DNA of 64,000 nucleotides, taken from the sequence record NC_054914.1, one strand, 5' to 3'. Of the stretch, positions 1,236 to 47,534 are shown one piece after another. Each line of letters starts with the position of its first letter. The stretch's first letter is position 1. The position numbers and the translations under genes are program-made. This stretch comes from Escherichia phage vB_EcoM-fFiEco06. The notes under the pieces are model-generated. The model had not been told where the DNA came from and did no database searches. It saw nothing but the letters and a program-made list of their open reading frames with translations.

Positions 1236-1880
1236 TTGATTATGGGGCTTCGGCCCCTATTCTCGAGGAAACAAGTGATTATTTCTAAGTTTGTTACAAT
1301 AAAACCAAGAAATCATTCAAAAATGTGGTCGACAATTCTGGGATATAAAGTATCATATCATGATACAGTATCTGTTCCAATAGAATTAATGCCAAAGAAT
1401 AGTAATAAAATAGTTGACGCTAAATGTGATTTGTGTGGTATTAAATTTAGTAGAAGCATTCAGCTTTTAAATAGAACACCCACGCATGCATGTAGAAAAT
1501 GTAGCATTAAACAAGTTGCTATTAAAAATTCGGAAGTTCAATCTGGAATAAGTAGACCATGGCAAAGAGGTGATAAACATCCTCGATGGACTGGTAAAAG
1601 AAAAGAGTTTGCATTATATGCTAGTAGAGTTCATTCTATAACTAAGTCAGCTAAAATAAGAAAAATCTGGTCAAAATGGCCAAATGCTGATAAAATAGGA
1701 GTGTGTGGTGTAGAAGGTGCTTACCAGCTTGATCATAAGGTATCTATCAAATATGGATTTGATAATTTAATTCCGCCGGAAATTATAGCAAGCGTAAAAA
1801 ATTTAGAAATAATCACTTGGGAATCTAACCGAGAAAAGTCAAAAAGAAATAGCGTAGATCTTTGGGATTTACTAGAATGA
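1236..1880 (+). CDS. HNH-family endonuclease-like protein with N-terminal CxxC...CxxC zinc ribbon; probable free-standing homing endonuclease; start codon uncertain (TTG 1236, ATG 1242, GTG 1272 or ATG 1323)
   Basis: C-terminal motif YQLDHKVSIKYGFDNL...ITWESNREKSKRN (D-H...N...N) and CDLCG...CRKC seen in translation; ORF fills the gene 18/19 gap. Confidence 0.55.
   Translation: MIMGLRPLFSRKQVIISKFVTIKPRNHSKMWSTILGYKVSYHDTVSVPIELMPKNSNKIVDAKCDLCGIKFSRSIQLLNRTPTHACRKCSIKQVAIKNSEVQSGISRPWQRGDKHPRWTGKRKEFALYASRVHSITKSAKIRKIWSKWPNADKIGVCGVEGAYQLDHKVSIKYGFDNLIPPEIIASVKNLEIITWESNREKSKRNSVDLWDLLE
1244..1257 (+). terminator. GGGGC-UUCG-GCCCC tetraloop hairpin immediately after gene 18 stop
   Basis: Perfect 5-bp GC stem with UUCG loop read directly; weak U-tract. 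Confidence 0.6.
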
Positions 1881-23143: not shown

Positions 23144-25201
23144 CTACATTTTGAACTTTTTAGACATTCCGTTGATGTTAACCAAAGAAGTCAAGATTTG
23201 AGAAACTTCATTTTCCTCTTCTTTTGATTCTTCTACAAGGAATTGATTAAATCCAGCCATTGGACGAACTTCACCAGTTTCCATTAGATGGTCTCCATCA
23301 TATACTGATTCTTCTAATTGTTCAGAAGGAGGAACGATTGTACCTTCGATTAGATACTTGTTATAAGCAGTTTCTTTCATAAAGTACGTACTTACTTTAT
23401 TAATCTTCAGTAAAATTCCACGTGGTAGAATAACTTCAGCTTCTGATGGAAATCCTGATAAATGACCTGGAACGATAACTTTGATTCGCTCAGCTCCTTT
23501 AATTACCATACCCACGCTAGTTTCTGCATCTTCATTAGCATATGTAGAATGACTACCCATATGCATCAAATCTTCTGCATCAACGGAACCTTCTCCTTCA
23601 CCAGAAAATACTGCGCCGGAATCATCTAGAGCCATATAGTTTTTACCATGCTCACCGAAGATATTTGGTTTAAGCGATGTGGATACGAAGTTCTTGAAAT
23701 AGAACATTTTATTTTCAATGTTATGACGCAAAGTTTTAAAGGTAACTTCTTGCCCACGGTAAAGTGTAGTTCCTGGAGGAAGAACTGATCCTTTGGCAAA
23801 GGCAGAATCTAACGTCTCGATGTGCTTAATAGCTCGTTCCATGTATTCTTCACGGGTAGAATCTGGTTTACCCAAAAGGAACGAGTTCATTTCAACATAT
23901 GAATCTGCACAATAATCTTCAATTACATCAGATTCAGCCTGAGTCAGTCCTTTTGGAGCTACTTCGGTGCTTGCGTATTCATATGCCTGGGCAGCAGATT
24001 CATTAATCAATTTATAAATGCCATTCATTACAAATTGAATAATAGCTGTCTTTTCATCTGGTGTGGTTTTAGAACCTTTAACTAAATCATTAATAATTTT
24101 CTTAATAACATCAAAGCTATTAGAAATATTAATGTCAGCAAGATCGCTTAAAATTTTATCAGTTTTATAATCAAAGAATTCTTTATTCTTTAAATATTCT
24201 TGAGAACCTTGATATGTTATATCGCTCTGCAACTTGATAGATGGATCACGTAAACGTGCATGGGCCAATGCAATATGATTTCGGAAGCTTTCTAGTTCAT
24301 AATCGCTAGATTTAAAACGAGAAGCACTTCTCATACCACCGATAGCTCCTTTGCTGAAGTTTGAACCAATCTGGATAACGCCAGAGTTCATTGGTCCTTC
24401 TGCTTTATATACCGGAACTTTAGATTCAAACTCTTGATATTTCTTGGCAGCGAAGCTATCACCCTGTAGCGAAGCATCGACAGTAGAATATTGAGCTTGT
24501 GCTGCTAATCGACGACTAATTTTAGTTTTCTGAATAACAGCTTGGTCCGTGCGCTTATCATTTTCTAAAGCAATAGAAGCAGCAACAGCGACAGCTTTAG
24601 GAACAGCATTTCCTGTTTTAACGTCTACATAAACATCACCGACCTTTGATTCAACTTTTGTGAATAACTCAGTTGAAATGGGAGGTACACCTGGAATGTC
24701 TTCTAAATTGGCATTTTTACGGTAAACCATAATATATGCGTACTTTTTATCGTAATCCCAGATTTCCTTTAAAAGAACATATCGACCTGCTCCTTTAGTA
24801 CGTACTAAACGGTCAGCAATAACTTGCATTTGACGAGCTGCGCCATTTGTTTTACTCTTTAGTACACGGAATAAGCACGCGTCAATTTTATACTGCTTCA
24901 TTGTTTGAAGAGCAGTATCAAAAACGGCATTAATGACACCAATTGGATTTCCACCCAAGTTTTTAAGCTTAACTAATGATAGTTTCTCATTAACACCTAT
25001 CATTACGATATGCATCATTTTATCGCCTGGCTTAACGTTTTTATTCGTATCACCACCAGAGGTGTATGTACAAAATCTAAATCCAGGAAGCACGCTTTCT
25101 TCGCCGGCTTGAATAGCAAAAATTTGTGGTATTTTATGCTTAGGATTTAAGTTAACAACCGGCGCCGAAGCGCCGTCAAATAATTCTGTAATAAGTTCCA
25201 T
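23144..25201 (-). CDS. Alt-like ADP-ribosyltransferase paralog (685 aa), R-S-E motifs intact
   Basis: N-terminus MELITELFD shared with the upstream copy; TLYRGQ, NFVSTSL, EAEVILPRG motifs seen. Confidence 0.75.
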   Translation of the reverse strand: MELITELFDGASAPVVNLNPKHKIPQIFAIQAGEESVLPGFRFCTYTSGGDTNKNVKPGDKMMHIVMIGVNEKLSLVKLKNLGGNPIGVINAVFDTALQTMKQYKIDACLFRVLKSKTNGAARQMQVIADRLVRTKGAGRYVLLKEIWDYDKKYAYIMVYRKNANLEDIPGVPPISTELFTKVESKVGDVYVDVKTGNAVPKAVAVAASIALENDKRTDQAVIQKTKISRRLAAQAQYSTVDASLQGDSFAAKKYQEFESKVPVYKAEGPMNSGVIQIGSNFSKGAIGGMRSASRFKSSDYELESFRNHIALAHARLRDPSIKLQSDITYQGSQEYLKNKEFFDYKTDKILSDLADINISNSFDVIKKIINDLVKGSKTTPDEKTAIIQFVMNGIYKLINESAAQAYEYASTEVAPKGLTQAESDVIEDYCADSYVEMNSFLLGKPDSTREEYMERAIKHIETLDSAFAKGSVLPPGTTLYRGQEVTFKTLRHNIENKMFYFKNFVSTSLKPNIFGEHGKNYMALDDSGAVFSGEGEGSVDAEDLMHMGSHSTYANEDAETSVGMVIKGAERIKVIVPGHLSGFPSEAEVILPRGILLKINKVSTYFMKETAYNKYLIEGTIVPPSEQLEESVYDGDHLMETGEVRPMAGFNQFLVEESKEEENEVSQILTSLVNINGMSKKFKM

Positions 25202-25204
25202 GAT

Positions 25205-27259
25205 TTATCCTTGAACGAACTTGTAAGGCATGTTTGCAATATCTATACAAGACGCAATAATTCCAAGAGATGATTCTACTTTCTGTTTAACGTTTGATGA
25301 AACAAATGATGTAAAGTCAACTCTGTCTTCTATTTCAATATCACCTGTCATTGCAACTACTTCGCCGGTTTCCATTAGACGGTCACCGTCATAAATTACC
25401 GATTCGGTGAGTTCTTCTGTGGTCATAACTTCAGCTTGAATAAGCTTGTTGTTAGTTTTAACTGTTCCATCATTGTAAGATGCATCGGTTATTTTATTAA
25501 CTTTGACCATTAATCCACGTGGCAAAATGACTTCCATTTCATTTGAAGGTGCTAAACTTCCACCTGGTAAAACAACATTGACTTTATCAGCCCCAGTAAT
25601 AACCCATCCAATTCCAACTAAATTATCGCTAGAATTTACTAGTCCTTCATCAGTTTTATCAATAGAAACACTTAAACGCTTTTCGTCTGGTAAAACACCC
25701 ACAGATGAATCAGTCATCCAGGTACCAAAAATATTTGGATATAATGATGTTGACACAAAATTTCTAAAATAAAAAACTCGATTTTTTACCAGTGCTTCAT
25801 ATATTGAAGGTAACATTCGTTGTGAACGATACAAAGTAATACCTTTTGGTAATCGTTCACCATTTTTAAAGGCAGAATCTAAATTATCAATAGCTTTTTC
25901 TATATCAGATGCTGTCAAAATACTTGTACGCTCATCTGGATTATATAATCCCAAAAGAGCGTTATTTATGTCTACATATCCTGAACTTACGTATTCACGA
26001 ATTCCGCGTTTTTGTGCCGGTGTGTATTTAGATGAATCTTTATTTTCGACTATAGGATGTAGTGACCATCCAGCGGTAAGAGCATATCCACGCAATTCTC
26101 TTCGAATAATCTTTGTTTTTATTGCATTCCAAGAATTTTGTACTAACTCATTCGCAGCATCTTGATTTAAATGCGAATGCTTGTTAATGTTTCTTTCTAA
26201 CCAAGCACCTTTATATTTTTCTAAAGTATCATCAACTATAGAAGCAATAGTTTCTAAAGTTTTTATTGAAGTAATAGATTCTTTTCGTAATCTTTCTAAA
26301 GCTTTATTTTTTATTTCTGCATTAACATCAGATTCTTTATCTTCAGGAATTATAGAAGCTTCTCTGAATGCCATTCCAGCTGTAACACTACTAAGAGCAT
26401 TCTCTAATGCAAATCCTGAAGTAGAAATAACAGTTAATTCATTAGCGTCAGAAATTAAAGGAGCGTCAGCAGGTTTATTTAATTCTGCTGCTGAAGCCTC
26501 AAATTTTTGAAACATCGGCGTTTCAAATCTAGAAGATTCCAATGATTGACTTTGCGCAATTGCTCTACGGGAAATTTTAACTTTAACGATTACAGCTTGG
26601 TCAGAACGTTTATCATTTTCTTGCGCAATAGATGCTGCAATTGCCTCATTTTTAGTTACTTGAGCTCCAGTATCTTTATTGATATAAACATCACCGACCT
26701 TCGATTCAACTTTAGTAAAGAGCTCAGTACTAATTTCCGGAACTCCCGGAATGTCTTCTAGTGATACATTTTTGCGATGTATAAGAATATATGCATACTT
26801 TTTATCGTAATCCCAGAGTTCCTTAAGAAGGACATATCTGCCACCTGAACGACTACGGATAAGTCTATCAGCAATAACTTGAATTTGTCGAGCTTGACCA
26901 GCGGTTTTAGACTTAAGAATACGAAGCATACAGGCATCAATTTTATACTGACGCATTGTTTGCATCGCAACAGTAAAAACTGAATTGATATAATTAATTG
27001 GGCTTGGACCAAGACCTTTTAATTTAGCAATTGAACCTTTAGCAGTTAATGTAAAAGGAACAATATGCATCATTTTATCGCCCATCTTTAAATCGCGATT
27101 AGTATCACCTCCAGATGTATAGGTACATAAACGAAAGCCTGGTTGTTCAATTGCATCATCAACATGAACTGAAAAAATTTGCGGTATTTTCTTCTTTGGA
27201 TTTAAGTTTGTAATCGGAAGAGTAGTATCTTCGTCAAATAATTCTGTAATAAGTTCCAT
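25205..27259 (-). CDS. alt: ADP-ribosyltransferase Alt (virion-packaged); start taken as second ATG (MELITELFDEDTT...)
   Basis: LYRSQ, FVSTSL, EMEVILPRG (R-S-E ART motifs); late promoter and RBS upstream; ~684 aa. Confidence 0.8.
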   Translation of the reverse strand: MELITELFDEDTTLPITNLNPKKKIPQIFSVHVDDAIEQPGFRLCTYTSGGDTNRDLKMGDKMMHIVPFTLTAKGSIAKLKGLGPSPINYINSVFTVAMQTMRQYKIDACMLRILKSKTAGQARQIQVIADRLIRSRSGGRYVLLKELWDYDKKYAYILIHRKNVSLEDIPGVPEISTELFTKVESKVGDVYINKDTGAQVTKNEAIAASIAQENDKRSDQAVIVKVKISRRAIAQSQSLESSRFETPMFQKFEASAAELNKPADAPLISDANELTVISTSGFALENALSSVTAGMAFREASIIPEDKESDVNAEIKNKALERLRKESITSIKTLETIASIVDDTLEKYKGAWLERNINKHSHLNQDAANELVQNSWNAIKTKIIRRELRGYALTAGWSLHPIVENKDSSKYTPAQKRGIREYVSSGYVDINNALLGLYNPDERTSILTASDIEKAIDNLDSAFKNGERLPKGITLYRSQRMLPSIYEALVKNRVFYFRNFVSTSLYPNIFGTWMTDSSVGVLPDEKRLSVSIDKTDEGLVNSSDNLVGIGWVITGADKVNVVLPGGSLAPSNEMEVILPRGLMVKVNKITDASYNDGTVKTNNKLIQAEVMTTEELTESVIYDGDRLMETGEVVAMTGDIEIEDRVDFTSFVSSNVKQKVESSLGIIASCIDIANMPYKFVQG

Positions 27260-40576: not shown

Positions 40577-41755
40577 TTAAAAGTATTTTTTAAAACTCAT
40601 CATAACTTTATCATCAACATCATTATCAATCTGTGCAACAAGGTAAGATGACAATTCTACTTCTTGTGGCGCAGATTGAACATTATCAGAATTAAGATAT
40701 TCACGAATCCAAGGATATGGATGTTTAACCGGAGCATCGGTAATTGGGCATGGAAGACCACACTGCTTCATACGAGATACAGTTAAGTAATCAATAAAGC
40801 TCCACATGCTATTTGTATTTAATCCAGGAACATCTCCATCTTTAAATAAATGAACTGCCCAATCTTTTTCTTGGCGGTTAACTTCCATGAAAATATCAAC
40901 TGCTTCTTGTTCACACTCTTGAGCAATTTTAACCCATTGATCGCCATCAGTACCAGATTGAAGTTGACGAATAATATATTGGGTGCCTTTAAGGTGAAGC
41001 TGTTCATCGCGTGCAATGAACTTCATAATCTTGGCATTACCTTCCATGATTTCCATGTTCTTATGGAAGTTAAAGGTACATGCAAAAGATACATAAAAAC
41101 GAATAGCTTCCAATGCGTTGATTACATGCAAACAGAGGTAAAGAGATTTCATTAGCTCACGCTTCCAATATGTCTCATGCTCAATAGCATCTTCAATAAC
41201 GTCTTCGTCTGCATTAATTTCTTTTTGGTATTCGATATCAGCTTTAGCGTTTTCCCAATAACGAGTTTTAATCAGAACATCATCATAATAACGTCCAATG
41301 GATTCAGCACGTTTCATAATAGCTTCATCTAATACAATCTCATCAAATACCTTCGATGGATCAGTATAAAGATTTCGCATGATATGAGTATATGAACGAC
41401 TGTGAATAGTTTCACTAAAAGTCCATGTAGCAACCCATGTATCAAGACTTGGGTCTGAAATTAATGACATAAGTACAGCAGACGGCGCACGACCCTGAAT
41501 GCTATCTAAAAGTGATTGATACTTCAGGTTGTTAGTAAAAATATTTTGCTGGTACTGAGGAAGCTTATTAAACTGTGCAGCATCCATCATCAAGTTTACT
41601 TCTTCAGGACGCCAGAAAAATGATAATTGCTTTTCGGTTAAATCTTCAAAAACTTTATGACGTTGAATATCATAACGCGCAATACCAAGACCTGAACCAA
41701 AAAACATAGGTTCTTTTAAAACATCAACTGGATTTGTATTAAAAACTGTGCTCAT
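40577..41755 (-). CDS. nrdB: ribonucleotide reductase small subunit NrdB, uninterrupted
   Basis: Continuous 392-aa ORF recognisable as R2. Confidence 0.9.
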   Translation of the reverse strand: MSTVFNTNPVDVLKEPMFFGSGLGIARYDIQRHKVFEDLTEKQLSFFWRPEEVNLMMDAAQFNKLPQYQQNIFTNNLKYQSLLDSIQGRAPSAVLMSLISDPSLDTWVATWTFSETIHSRSYTHIMRNLYTDPSKVFDEIVLDEAIMKRAESIGRYYDDVLIKTRYWENAKADIEYQKEINADEDVIEDAIEHETYWKRELMKSLYLCLHVINALEAIRFYVSFACTFNFHKNMEIMEGNAKIMKFIARDEQLHLKGTQYIIRQLQSGTDGDQWVKIAQECEQEAVDIFMEVNRQEKDWAVHLFKDGDVPGLNTNSMWSFIDYLTVSRMKQCGLPCPITDAPVKHPYPWIREYLNSDNVQSAPQEVELSSYLVAQIDNDVDDKVMMSFKKYF

Positions 41756-41806
41756 AAATTTTCCGCTTAGTTAATAGTTGGTGACTCGTCCGTGAGTCAA
41801 ATTATA

Positions 41807-44628: not shown

Positions 44629-44940
44629 TTACACCGCCATTTTTCCTTTCAAGACGCCGTGGGACTGATAATCTTTGAGAACGAAATCTTTAGGCCTGAG
44701 TTTAAGAATGTATTCCAATTGTTCTTTAGTAGAAAGATAGCGGAATTTATAAGGCAATCCGCCTATTACCAGTTCACAAAGCTCTTTAGGTTCACGACGC
44801 AAAATTTCTTTACATTGTTCTACGTGATTCATATAGATATGAGTATTACCACCGGAAAATATCAAATCTCCCGGAATAAGATTACACATCTTAGCTACAA
44901 TATGAACTAACGTAGCATATGATGCAATATTAAATGGAAG
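44629..44940 (-). CDS. td: thymidylate synthase exon 2 (103 codons, begins LPFNIASYA...)
   Basis: TS C-terminal sequence; exon junction deduced from reading frame. Confidence 0.92.
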   Translation of the reverse strand, partial: LPFNIASYATLVHIVAKMCNLIPGDLIFSGGNTHIYMNHVEQCKEILRREPKELCELVIGGLPYKFRYLSTKEQLEYILKLRPKDFVLKDYQSHGVLKGKMAV

Positions 44941-45956
44941 CATTATGTTCAGATAAGGTCGTTAATCTTACCCCGGAATTATATCCAGCTGCATGTCACC
45001 ATGCAGATCAGACTATATCTCCAACTTGTTAAAGCAAGTTGTCTATCGTTTCGAGTCACTTGACCCTACTCCCCAAAGGGATAGTCGTTAGGCATTTATG
45101 TAGAACCAATTCCATTTATCAGATTTTACACGATAAGTAACTAATCCAGACGAAATTTTAAAATGTCTAGCTGCATCTGCTGCACAATCAAAAATAACCC
45201 CATCACATGAAATCTTTTTAATATTACTAGGCTTTTTACCTTTCATCTTTTCTGATATTTTAGATTTAGTTATGTCTGAATGCTTATGATTAAAGAATGA
45301 ATTATTTTCACCTGAACGATTTCTGCATTTACTACAAGTATAAGCAGAAGTTTGTATGCGAACACCGCACTTACAAAACTTATGGGTTTCTGGATTCAAA
45401 CGCCCGTTTTTACTTCCGGGTTTACTGTAAAGAGCTTTCCGACCATCAGGTCCAAGTTTAAGCATCTTAGCTTTAACAGTTTCAGAACGTTTCTTAATAA
45501 TTTCTTCTTTTAATGGATGCGTAGAACATGTATCACCAAACGTTGCATCAGCAATATTGTATCCATTAATTTTAGAATTAAGCTCTTTAATCCAAAAATT
45601 TTCTCGTTCAATAATCAAATCTTTCTCATATGGAATTTCTTCCAAAATAGAACATTCAAACACATTACCATGTTTGTTAAAAGACCTCTGAAGCTTTATA
45701 GAAGAATGGCATCCTTTTTCTAAATCTTTAAAATGCCTCTTCCATCTCTTTTCAAAATCTTTAGCACTTCCTACATATACTTTATTGTTTAAAGTATTTT
45801 TAATCTGATAAATTCCGCTTTTCATAAATACCTCTTTAAATATAGAAGTATTTATTAAAGGGCAGTCCTACAATTTAGCACGGGATTGTCTACTAGAGAG
45901 GTTCCCCGTTTAGATAGATTACAAGTATAAGTCACCTTATACTCAGGCCTCAATTA
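44941..45956 (-). mobile_element. td group I self-splicing intron (1016 nt) carrying I-TevI
   Basis: Intron 5' sequence TAATTGAGGCCTGAGTATAAGGTGACTTATACTTGTAATC... recognised; length equals T4 td intron. Confidence 0.92.
45088..45825 (-). CDS. I-TevI: GIY-YIG homing endonuclease I-TevI (245 aa), intron-encoded
   Basis: N-terminus MKSGIYQIKNTLNNKVYVGSAKDFEKRWKRH (GIY...YVG) and zinc finger; length matches. Confidence 0.93.
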   Translation of the reverse strand: MKSGIYQIKNTLNNKVYVGSAKDFEKRWKRHFKDLEKGCHSSIKLQRSFNKHGNVFECSILEEIPYEKDLIIERENFWIKELNSKINGYNIADATFGDTCSTHPLKEEIIKKRSETVKAKMLKLGPDGRKALYSKPGSKNGRLNPETHKFCKCGVRIQTSAYTCSKCRNRSGENNSFFNHKHSDITKSKISEKMKGKKPSNIKKISCDGVIFDCAADAARHFKISSGLVTYRVKSDKWNWFYINA

Positions 45957-46504
45957 ACCCAAGAAAACATCTACTGATCGTTGATACCACTGCAAATCCA
46001 AATAGCCATTACGCACATTAAACTGATAGAACATATGACAAGGCGGTAATGCCATCTGCTTGAGTTCAGCTGGATTCCATGCTGAAACAATTTGACGCCT
46101 ATCATTTGGCAATTTTTTAATACGATCAATAACTTCTATAATTTGGTCTACACCACCAAAATCACGCCACTGTTTTCCATAAATTGGACCAAGTTCACCG
46201 CTATGGTATCCTAAATCTTTTGCTTGATTTTCGTAATTTTCATCCCAAACTGTTTTGCCTTGGATTAACGAATCATGTTGAATTAATCGCAAATCATTGA
46301 CATTTGTGCTTCCCGATAAAAACCAAAGCAGCTCAGCAATGCAAGCTTTCCAGGCGAGCTTCTTAGTTGTTACTGCAGGAAAACCTTTAGTTAAATCCCA
46401 GCGTAATTTAGTACCGAACAAAGCAATTGTTCCTGTGCCTGTTCGGTCATCGGTTTCGTAGCCATTTTCCAGGATATCTTTAATTAAAAATTGGTATTGT
46501 TTCA

Positions 46505-46505
<1 letters not shown>
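45957..46505 (-). CDS. td: thymidylate synthase exon 1 (183 codons, MKQYQ...VDVFLG)
   Basis: TS N-terminal sequence; exons 1+2 give 286 aa as in T4. Confidence 0.92.

Positions 46506-47534
<1,029 letters not shown>

Follow-up and report, generated by a model that had tools for sequence, protein, structure and literature searches.

The interrupted td gene and its surroundings

On the minus strand of the 64,000-nt window (the whole stretch of DNA analysed, from vB_EcoM-fFiEco06, NC_054914.1), the thymidylate synthase gene td is divided into two exons by an insert that carries an open reading frame (ORF) for the homing endonuclease I-TevI (Table 1). Exon 1 closes with the codons GTA GAT GTT TTC TTG GGT (VDVFLG), its last U lying at 45957; the insert starts with TAATTGAGGCCTGAGTATAAGG at 45956 and finishes with ...ACATAATG at 44941; exon 2 opens at 44940 with CTT CCA TTT AAT ATT GCA TCA TAT GCT (LPFNIASYA). 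Read straight on, the frame of exon 1 meets TAA as the first codon of the intron, and taking out the 1016 nt leaves an 861-nt ORF encoding a thymidylate synthase of 286 residues. The Pfam model Thymidylat_synt (PF00303, 266 positions) is shared between the exons, with positions 1-175 matched by exon 1 (216.5 bits) and positions 176-266 by exon 2 (83.9 bits), so that the two matches abut exactly. The spliced protein aligns over residues 1-286 with the same residues of the T4 enzyme (PDB 1TIS; E=1.7e-191) with a gap-free junction, and both the catalytic cysteine motif PPCH and the motif DVFLGLPFNIASY are intact. A preliminary description of this DNA had the td frame split after VDVFLG and resuming at LPFNIASYA; this division is exact and its excision gives a full-length enzyme by Pfam and by comparison with 1TIS. 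The length of 1016 nt and the boundaries at 44941 and 45956 given there are likewise exact and need only be completed by the strand (minus), which had been left out. Such a feature lies well beyond what chance would give.

Table 1. Coordinates of the td locus, of other features in the window and of shortened introns in related phages (the latter numbered within each retrieved locus).
Feature	Coordinates	Strand	Details
td exon 1	45957..46505	-	ATG at 46505; 549 nt, codons 1-183, C-terminus ...VDVFLG; from the ORF list
Group I (td) intron	44941..45956	-	1016 nt; first nucleotide U, last nucleotide G
td exon 2	44629..44940	-	312 nt with stop; codons 184-286; N-terminal LPFNIASYA
Ribozyme core, 5' half	45866..45956	-	Guide, P2, P3 5' strand, P4, P5, 5' strands of P6 and P6a; pairing check
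Ribozyme core, 3' half	44941..45105	-	3' strands of P6a and P6, P7, P7.1, P7.2, P3 3' strand, P8, P7 3' strand, P9, P9.1, P9.2, terminal G
I-TevI ORF	45088..45825	-	245 codons and stop, looped out of P6a
W143L codon of I-TevI	45397..45399	-	TTG (Leu); TGG (Trp) in T4 and 1I3J
RBS hairpin	45824..45855	-	12-bp stem pairing the I-TevI Shine-Dalgarno sequence AGAGG and AUG start with upstream sequence
Late-promoter-like octamer AATAAATA	45849..45856	-	Intron 101-108; overlaps the operator-like copy
Operator-like copy of the homing-site binding region	45840..45871	-	18/32 identity to the reconstructed homing site; common CC-TTTAAT core
CAACG (CNNNG), putative I-TevI cleavage motif in exon 1	45979..45983	-	-27..-23 from the insertion site; motif scan of the reconstructed intronless site
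nrdB	40577..41755	-	Single uninterrupted ORF
68-aa ORF	46505..46711	-	Between frd and td; stop overlaps the td ATG
81-aa ORF	47289..47534	-	Upstream of frd
212-aa ORF	1242..1880	+	Between the genes for tail sheath (gp18) and tail tube (gp19); annotated hypothetical
Tandem alt-like genes	~23144..25201, 25205..27259	-	RNA polymerase ADP-ribosyltransferase; as annotated in the identical record
Shortened td intron, GRNsp7	1504..1751		
Shortened td intron, ESh30	1504..1817		
Shortened td intron, vB_EcoM_F1	1504..~1950		

The surroundings of td differ from those in T4 in several respects. In T4, frd overlaps td directly, whereas here the 68-aa ORF is interposed and the 81-aa ORF precedes frd; both are absent from these positions in T4. 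They belong to PHROG families 9550 and 3183, for which no function is assigned, and neither matches Pfam. In all, five small ORFs that are unannotated and lie nearby gave no matches in a Pfam scan and fall into PHROG families of unknown function, save for the ORF at 1242..1880: besides its assignment to PHROG 5104 (unknown function), this one shows a weak match to a homing-endonuclease PHROG (E=7.8e-4) with no Pfam match, and it may be a free-standing homing endonuclease. Two alt-like genes lie in tandem elsewhere in the window. The nrdB gene follows directly downstream of nrdA (the gap spans 41756..41806), and the nrdB intron, I-TevIII, mobE and nrdB.1, all present at this place in T4, are absent; since nrdB is uninterrupted, this is a phage with the td intron and without the nrdB intron. 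The nrdD gene lies outside the window. The T4 introns in nrdB (I-TevIII) and nrdD (I-TevII) are further phage group I introns with a homing endonuclease gene (PMC2988022), elements of the same kind as that in td with other host genes and other endonucleases.

The ribozyme core

The helices of a td-type intron (P1, P2-P6, P6a, P7, P7.1, P7.2, P8, P9, P9.1 and P9.2) were written out from the window sequence and each pair was checked: all 74 of 74 pairs are standard across 14 helices (P1 and 13 intron helices), the P3/P7 pseudoknot included. In P1, the exon segment UUGGGU pairs with the internal guide GCCUGA (intron 9-14), which places a U·G wobble at the 5' splice site between exon U(-1) and guide G9, while the other boundary is formed by the G that ends the intron. 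Between P7 and the 3' strand of P3, two additional hairpins can form according to the pairing check, P7.1 (45078-80 with 45072-74) and P7.2 (45062-66 with 45053-57); such extra hairpins are typical of subgroup IA2 in the classification of Michel and Westhof. The last five sense codons and the stop of the I-TevI ORF double as the 3' strands of P6a and P6, just as the end of the ORF supplies these strands in T4 (PMC2988022).

Unconstrained folding with ViennaRNA of the intron in which the P6a loop had been replaced by GAAA returns, as minimum free energy structure, all the nested core helices (P2-P6a, P7.1, P7.2, P8 and P9). This ORF-deleted intron folds at -74.2 kcal/mol, whereas mononucleotide shuffles of it give -57.9 ± 4.6 kcal/mol (z=-3.5). 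In an alignment of seven natural variants, pairing is retained in 99.6% of 511 pair cells, compared with 30-44% when the partners are slid by 1-3 columns, a contrast inflated by the derivation of the helices from the window sequence itself. The U·G pair at the splice site is invariant in all seven. P1 varies with its pairing kept, exon G(-4) changing to A and the guide GA to AG or GG, and P8 contains one compensatory change from A-U to U-A, in GRNsp7. With so nearly invariant a core, this single compensatory pair is not a significant covariation signal among the seven variants (a score as high as the observed one arises in 78 of 500 shuffles); the result is compatible with a group I structure and does not amount to proof of it.

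The general covariance model for group I introns behaves differently on this element and on its shorter relatives. Whole-window scans with Rfam RF00028 gave no match at the gathering score (50 bits) and none at E<=0.01, and a scan of 1.5 kb gave a partial match at 44989..45219(-) scoring 42.5 bits, below the gathering score of 50, with E=4e-9. In that match the model places the 3' strand of P3, P8, the GAUAUAGUC element and P9 correctly, but its 5' half ends up misaligned on the last part of the I-TevI ORF. ORF-less td introns pass, with 77.1 bits in GRNsp7 and 70.3 bits in ESh30 and P1-P9 aligned; that of phage vB_EcoM_F1, whose core is 100% identical to the one in the window and whose intron measures 446 nt, also stays below the gathering score. 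The miss is thus to be attributed to the insertion of 760 nt in P6a and not to the core, since ORF-less homologues pass and vB_EcoM_F1 fails. Routine Rfam scans can therefore overlook a genuine group I intron that carries a long ORF in a peripheral loop.

I-TevI, its putative control elements and the homing site

The I-TevI ORF was described beforehand as intact over 245 codons, and it is indeed uninterrupted; its product matches three Pfam domains, the GIY-YIG catalytic domain (PF01541, 66.8 bits), a zinc finger (PF22635, 73.4 bits) and a DNA-binding domain (PF20987, 110.5 bits). Residues 1-97 are identical to the crystallised catalytic domains 1MK0 and 1LN0 except for the engineered E75A and R27A, for which the window has the wild-type E75 and R27; over residues 130-245, W143L is the sole difference from 1I3J. 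This substitution sits in the interdomain linker, just ahead of the zinc finger. Leu143 is a minority natural allele: the exact 61-mer that contains it occurs in 16 phage records, as against 126 with the Trp version.

In T4, I-TevI has a late promoter within the intron; its expression is regulated by a hairpin over the ribosome-binding site (RBS) and is autorepressed by binding of the protein to an operator (PMC2988022). Counterparts of these elements are present in the window. The RBS hairpin is predicted at -13.0 kcal/mol (ViennaRNA fold of intron 93-140), and the octamer AATAAATA, which resembles a late promoter, carries a promoter annotation in phage Lutter. The reconstructed intronless td homing site reads TATCAACGATCAGTAGATGTTTTCTTGGGTCTTCCATTTAATATTGCATCATATGC. 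For cleavage, I-TevI requires the motif CNNNG at a distance of 23-25 nt on the upstream side of the point of intron insertion (PMC2988022), and exon 1 offers the putative motif CAACG at this place. In the operator-like copy, CNNNG is absent at -27..-23 and the nearest one is found at -18..-14; by comparison, the T4 operator has a sub-optimal CNNNG at -19..-15 (PMC2988022). The motif is one base closer here because of a missing T: the T4 intron has an extra T (GGACTTGCCC) that is absent between intron nucleotides 92 and 93 (window 45864/45865, -). Among eight aligned phages T4 alone has this base and six are without it; the ORF deletion of GRNsp7 takes in the position.

Splicing, regulation and homing have all been demonstrated for the td element of T4 (PMC2988022). 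All the sequence elements for these activities are present in the window, and from the 99.6% identity with the T4 element we infer the activities themselves. The following course of events would result. The td gene would be transcribed from the minus strand of the window; as long as the RNA remained unspliced, translation would end at the UAA that opens the intron and give a fragment of 183 residues. The intron RNA would fold into the group I core, with P1 and its U·G pair at the splice site, P2-P9.2 and the P3/P7 pseudoknot; a free guanosine bound at P7 would attack the 5' splice site, after which the terminal G1016 would replace the guanosine and the 3'-OH of exon 1 would attack the 3' splice site. 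Ligation at GGU|CUU would restore the conserved ...DVFLG-LPFNIASY... of thymidylate synthase. I-TevI would be silent early in infection, when the hairpin would hide its ribosome-binding site, and expressed later from the late promoter within the intron; it would limit its own production by binding the operator, which mimics the homing site and is without a correctly spaced CNNNG. Should an intronless relative infect the same cell, I-TevI would bind around the insertion site through its C-terminal domain, and the zinc-finger linker would bring the GIY-YIG domain to CAACG, which lies 23-27 nt upstream. The resulting double-strand break, 23-25 nt ahead of the insertion site, would be repaired from the intron-plus allele, so that the intron and adjacent exon sequence would be copied.

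Relatives, alternative readings and mobility

Alignment to the td intron of T4 had been proposed as a check of the preliminary description; it gives four differing positions over the whole intron, or ~99.6% identity (T4, NC_000866.4). The host gene and the insertion point, after Gly183 at GGU|CUx, are common to both phages (T4 td spans 143235..145112), and so is the architecture, with the ORF in the P6a loop, the late promoter and operator and the RBS hairpin. The 5' half of the core is 100% identical, and over the 5' core and leader every aligned base is the same, the deletion of the T being the sole difference; the claim that the insert opens with the td intron 5' sequence thus holds for its first 131 nt, this T apart. 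The T4 intron is accordingly 1017 nt long, with its one extra T, and that of the window 1016 nt. The ORF is 99.7% identical, with only two nucleotide differences, a synonymous one in codon K44 and the TGG to TTG change that yields W143L; the 3' core is 99.3% identical, with A here for C at intron position 949, in unpaired sequence that joins P7 to P9. The td exons are more diverged from T4 than the intron, with 94.9% identity in exon 1 and 88.1% in exon 2. Synonymous changes fall at -22 (C to A), beside the cleavage motif, and at +3, +6 and +18 in the binding site. A near-identical intron inside more diverged exons is what one would expect of an element that passes from one td allele to another.

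The nearest record is that of phage vB_EcoM-fHoEco02 (MG781191.1), in which the td region (140620..142496) is 100% identical to that of the window and the rest of the window 99.9-100% identical. With identity at this level throughout, the window is essentially that of phage fHoEco02, a Tequatrovirus, whose record annotates td as a two-piece joined coding sequence together with I-TevI. At least 80% of the length of the td region is matched by 195 phage records (E=0), and at least 80% of the intron is found in ~199, of which 173 are at least 99% identical. The spliced 300-nt junction matches 574 records, of which 403 have it contiguous or with a short insert only; most T4-like td genes are thus without the full intron.

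Among the Tequatrovirus relatives, GRNsp7, ESh30 and vB_EcoM_F1 have the insertion site of the window and ribozyme cores that are 95-100% identical to it. Whereas the ORF is complete in the window, I-TevI is deleted in GRNsp7 (intron of ~254 nt) and ESh30 (~320 nt), and in vB_EcoM_F1 it is truncated to 55 codons within the 446-nt intron. Six records have junction exons that are 100% identical to those of the window but an ORF-less intron of ~320 nt, which suggests loss of the endonuclease within the same exon haplotype. The Mosigvirus phages vB_Eco_F27 and LF82-4 share with the window the site, the architecture and an intact endonuclease ORF of 245 codons; relative to the window, their ORFs are 86-88% identical and their exons 68-78%, whereas their ribozyme halves are 96-98% identical. 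In both phages the exon side of P1 and the guide have changed and every P1 pair is kept. Conservation of the ribozyme halves while ORF and exons diverge points to selection on the RNA core.

Taken together, the locus is, with a probability of about 0.97, the self-splicing td group I intron of T4-type phages with its endonuclease I-TevI, in a phage essentially identical to vB_EcoM-fHoEco02. Many related records list 'thymidylate synthase (x2)' and a homing endonuclease without a join, and these annotations would suit a different reading, namely that there is no intron and that a free-standing homing endonuclease cassette has broken td in two. Such a reading is almost certainly wrong: the non-coding flanks of the ORF form a complete group I core and stay 98-100% conserved in phages whose ORF is no more than 86-88% identical, ORF-less versions exceed the gathering score of RF00028, a U·G pair and a terminal G mark the boundaries, and excision restores the frame exactly. 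The reading of td as broken by a free-standing endonuclease was thus rejected on the group I core, the boundaries and the restored frame. An assembly artefact was rejected as well, the region being identical in an independent complete genome and nearly so in ~200 others.

A second question concerns the present state of the endonuclease. The intron could splice and be no longer, or only poorly, mobile, with the enzyme impaired by W143L in its distance-determining linker and the element just entering the phase of the homing cycle in which the endonuclease decays. Leu143 is indeed the rarer allele (16 records against 126), relatives with deleted or truncated I-TevI in td introns of 254, 320 and 446 nt exist, and six of the shortened-intron records have the very junction exons of the window. 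Against impairment, the ORF is full length with two nucleotide differences from T4; no change affects the catalytic R27 and E75, the CxC...CxxC zinc finger or any part of the DNA-binding domain; the W143L allele persists in at least 16 deposited genomes; and a literature search found no published role for W143 and gave no evidence that this residue is critical. Impairment is on this evidence very improbable. A related and improbable idea is that W143L and the spacing upstream of the operator, shorter here by one base, might jointly characterise a naturally occurring variant of I-TevI. If this were true, the variant could differ in its preference for cleavage distance or in autorepression, and it could mark a lineage whose endonuclease is either adapting to the td exon haplotype of this phage group or starting to decay.

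The td intron is among the first introns described in bacterial viruses and among the best studied. The presence of this intron with I-TevI in the window is a correct finding, and an ordinary one because the textbook element is already known and annotated in GenBank. Three points depart mildly from the standard picture: the W143L allele, the single-base difference upstream of the operator, and the absence of the intron from the results of routine Rfam scans. Its practical use is that of a positive control, in which a split gene and its nested endonuclease can be recognised from raw sequence. For the phage itself, we infer from the near-identity to the T4 element that the intron would be mobile.
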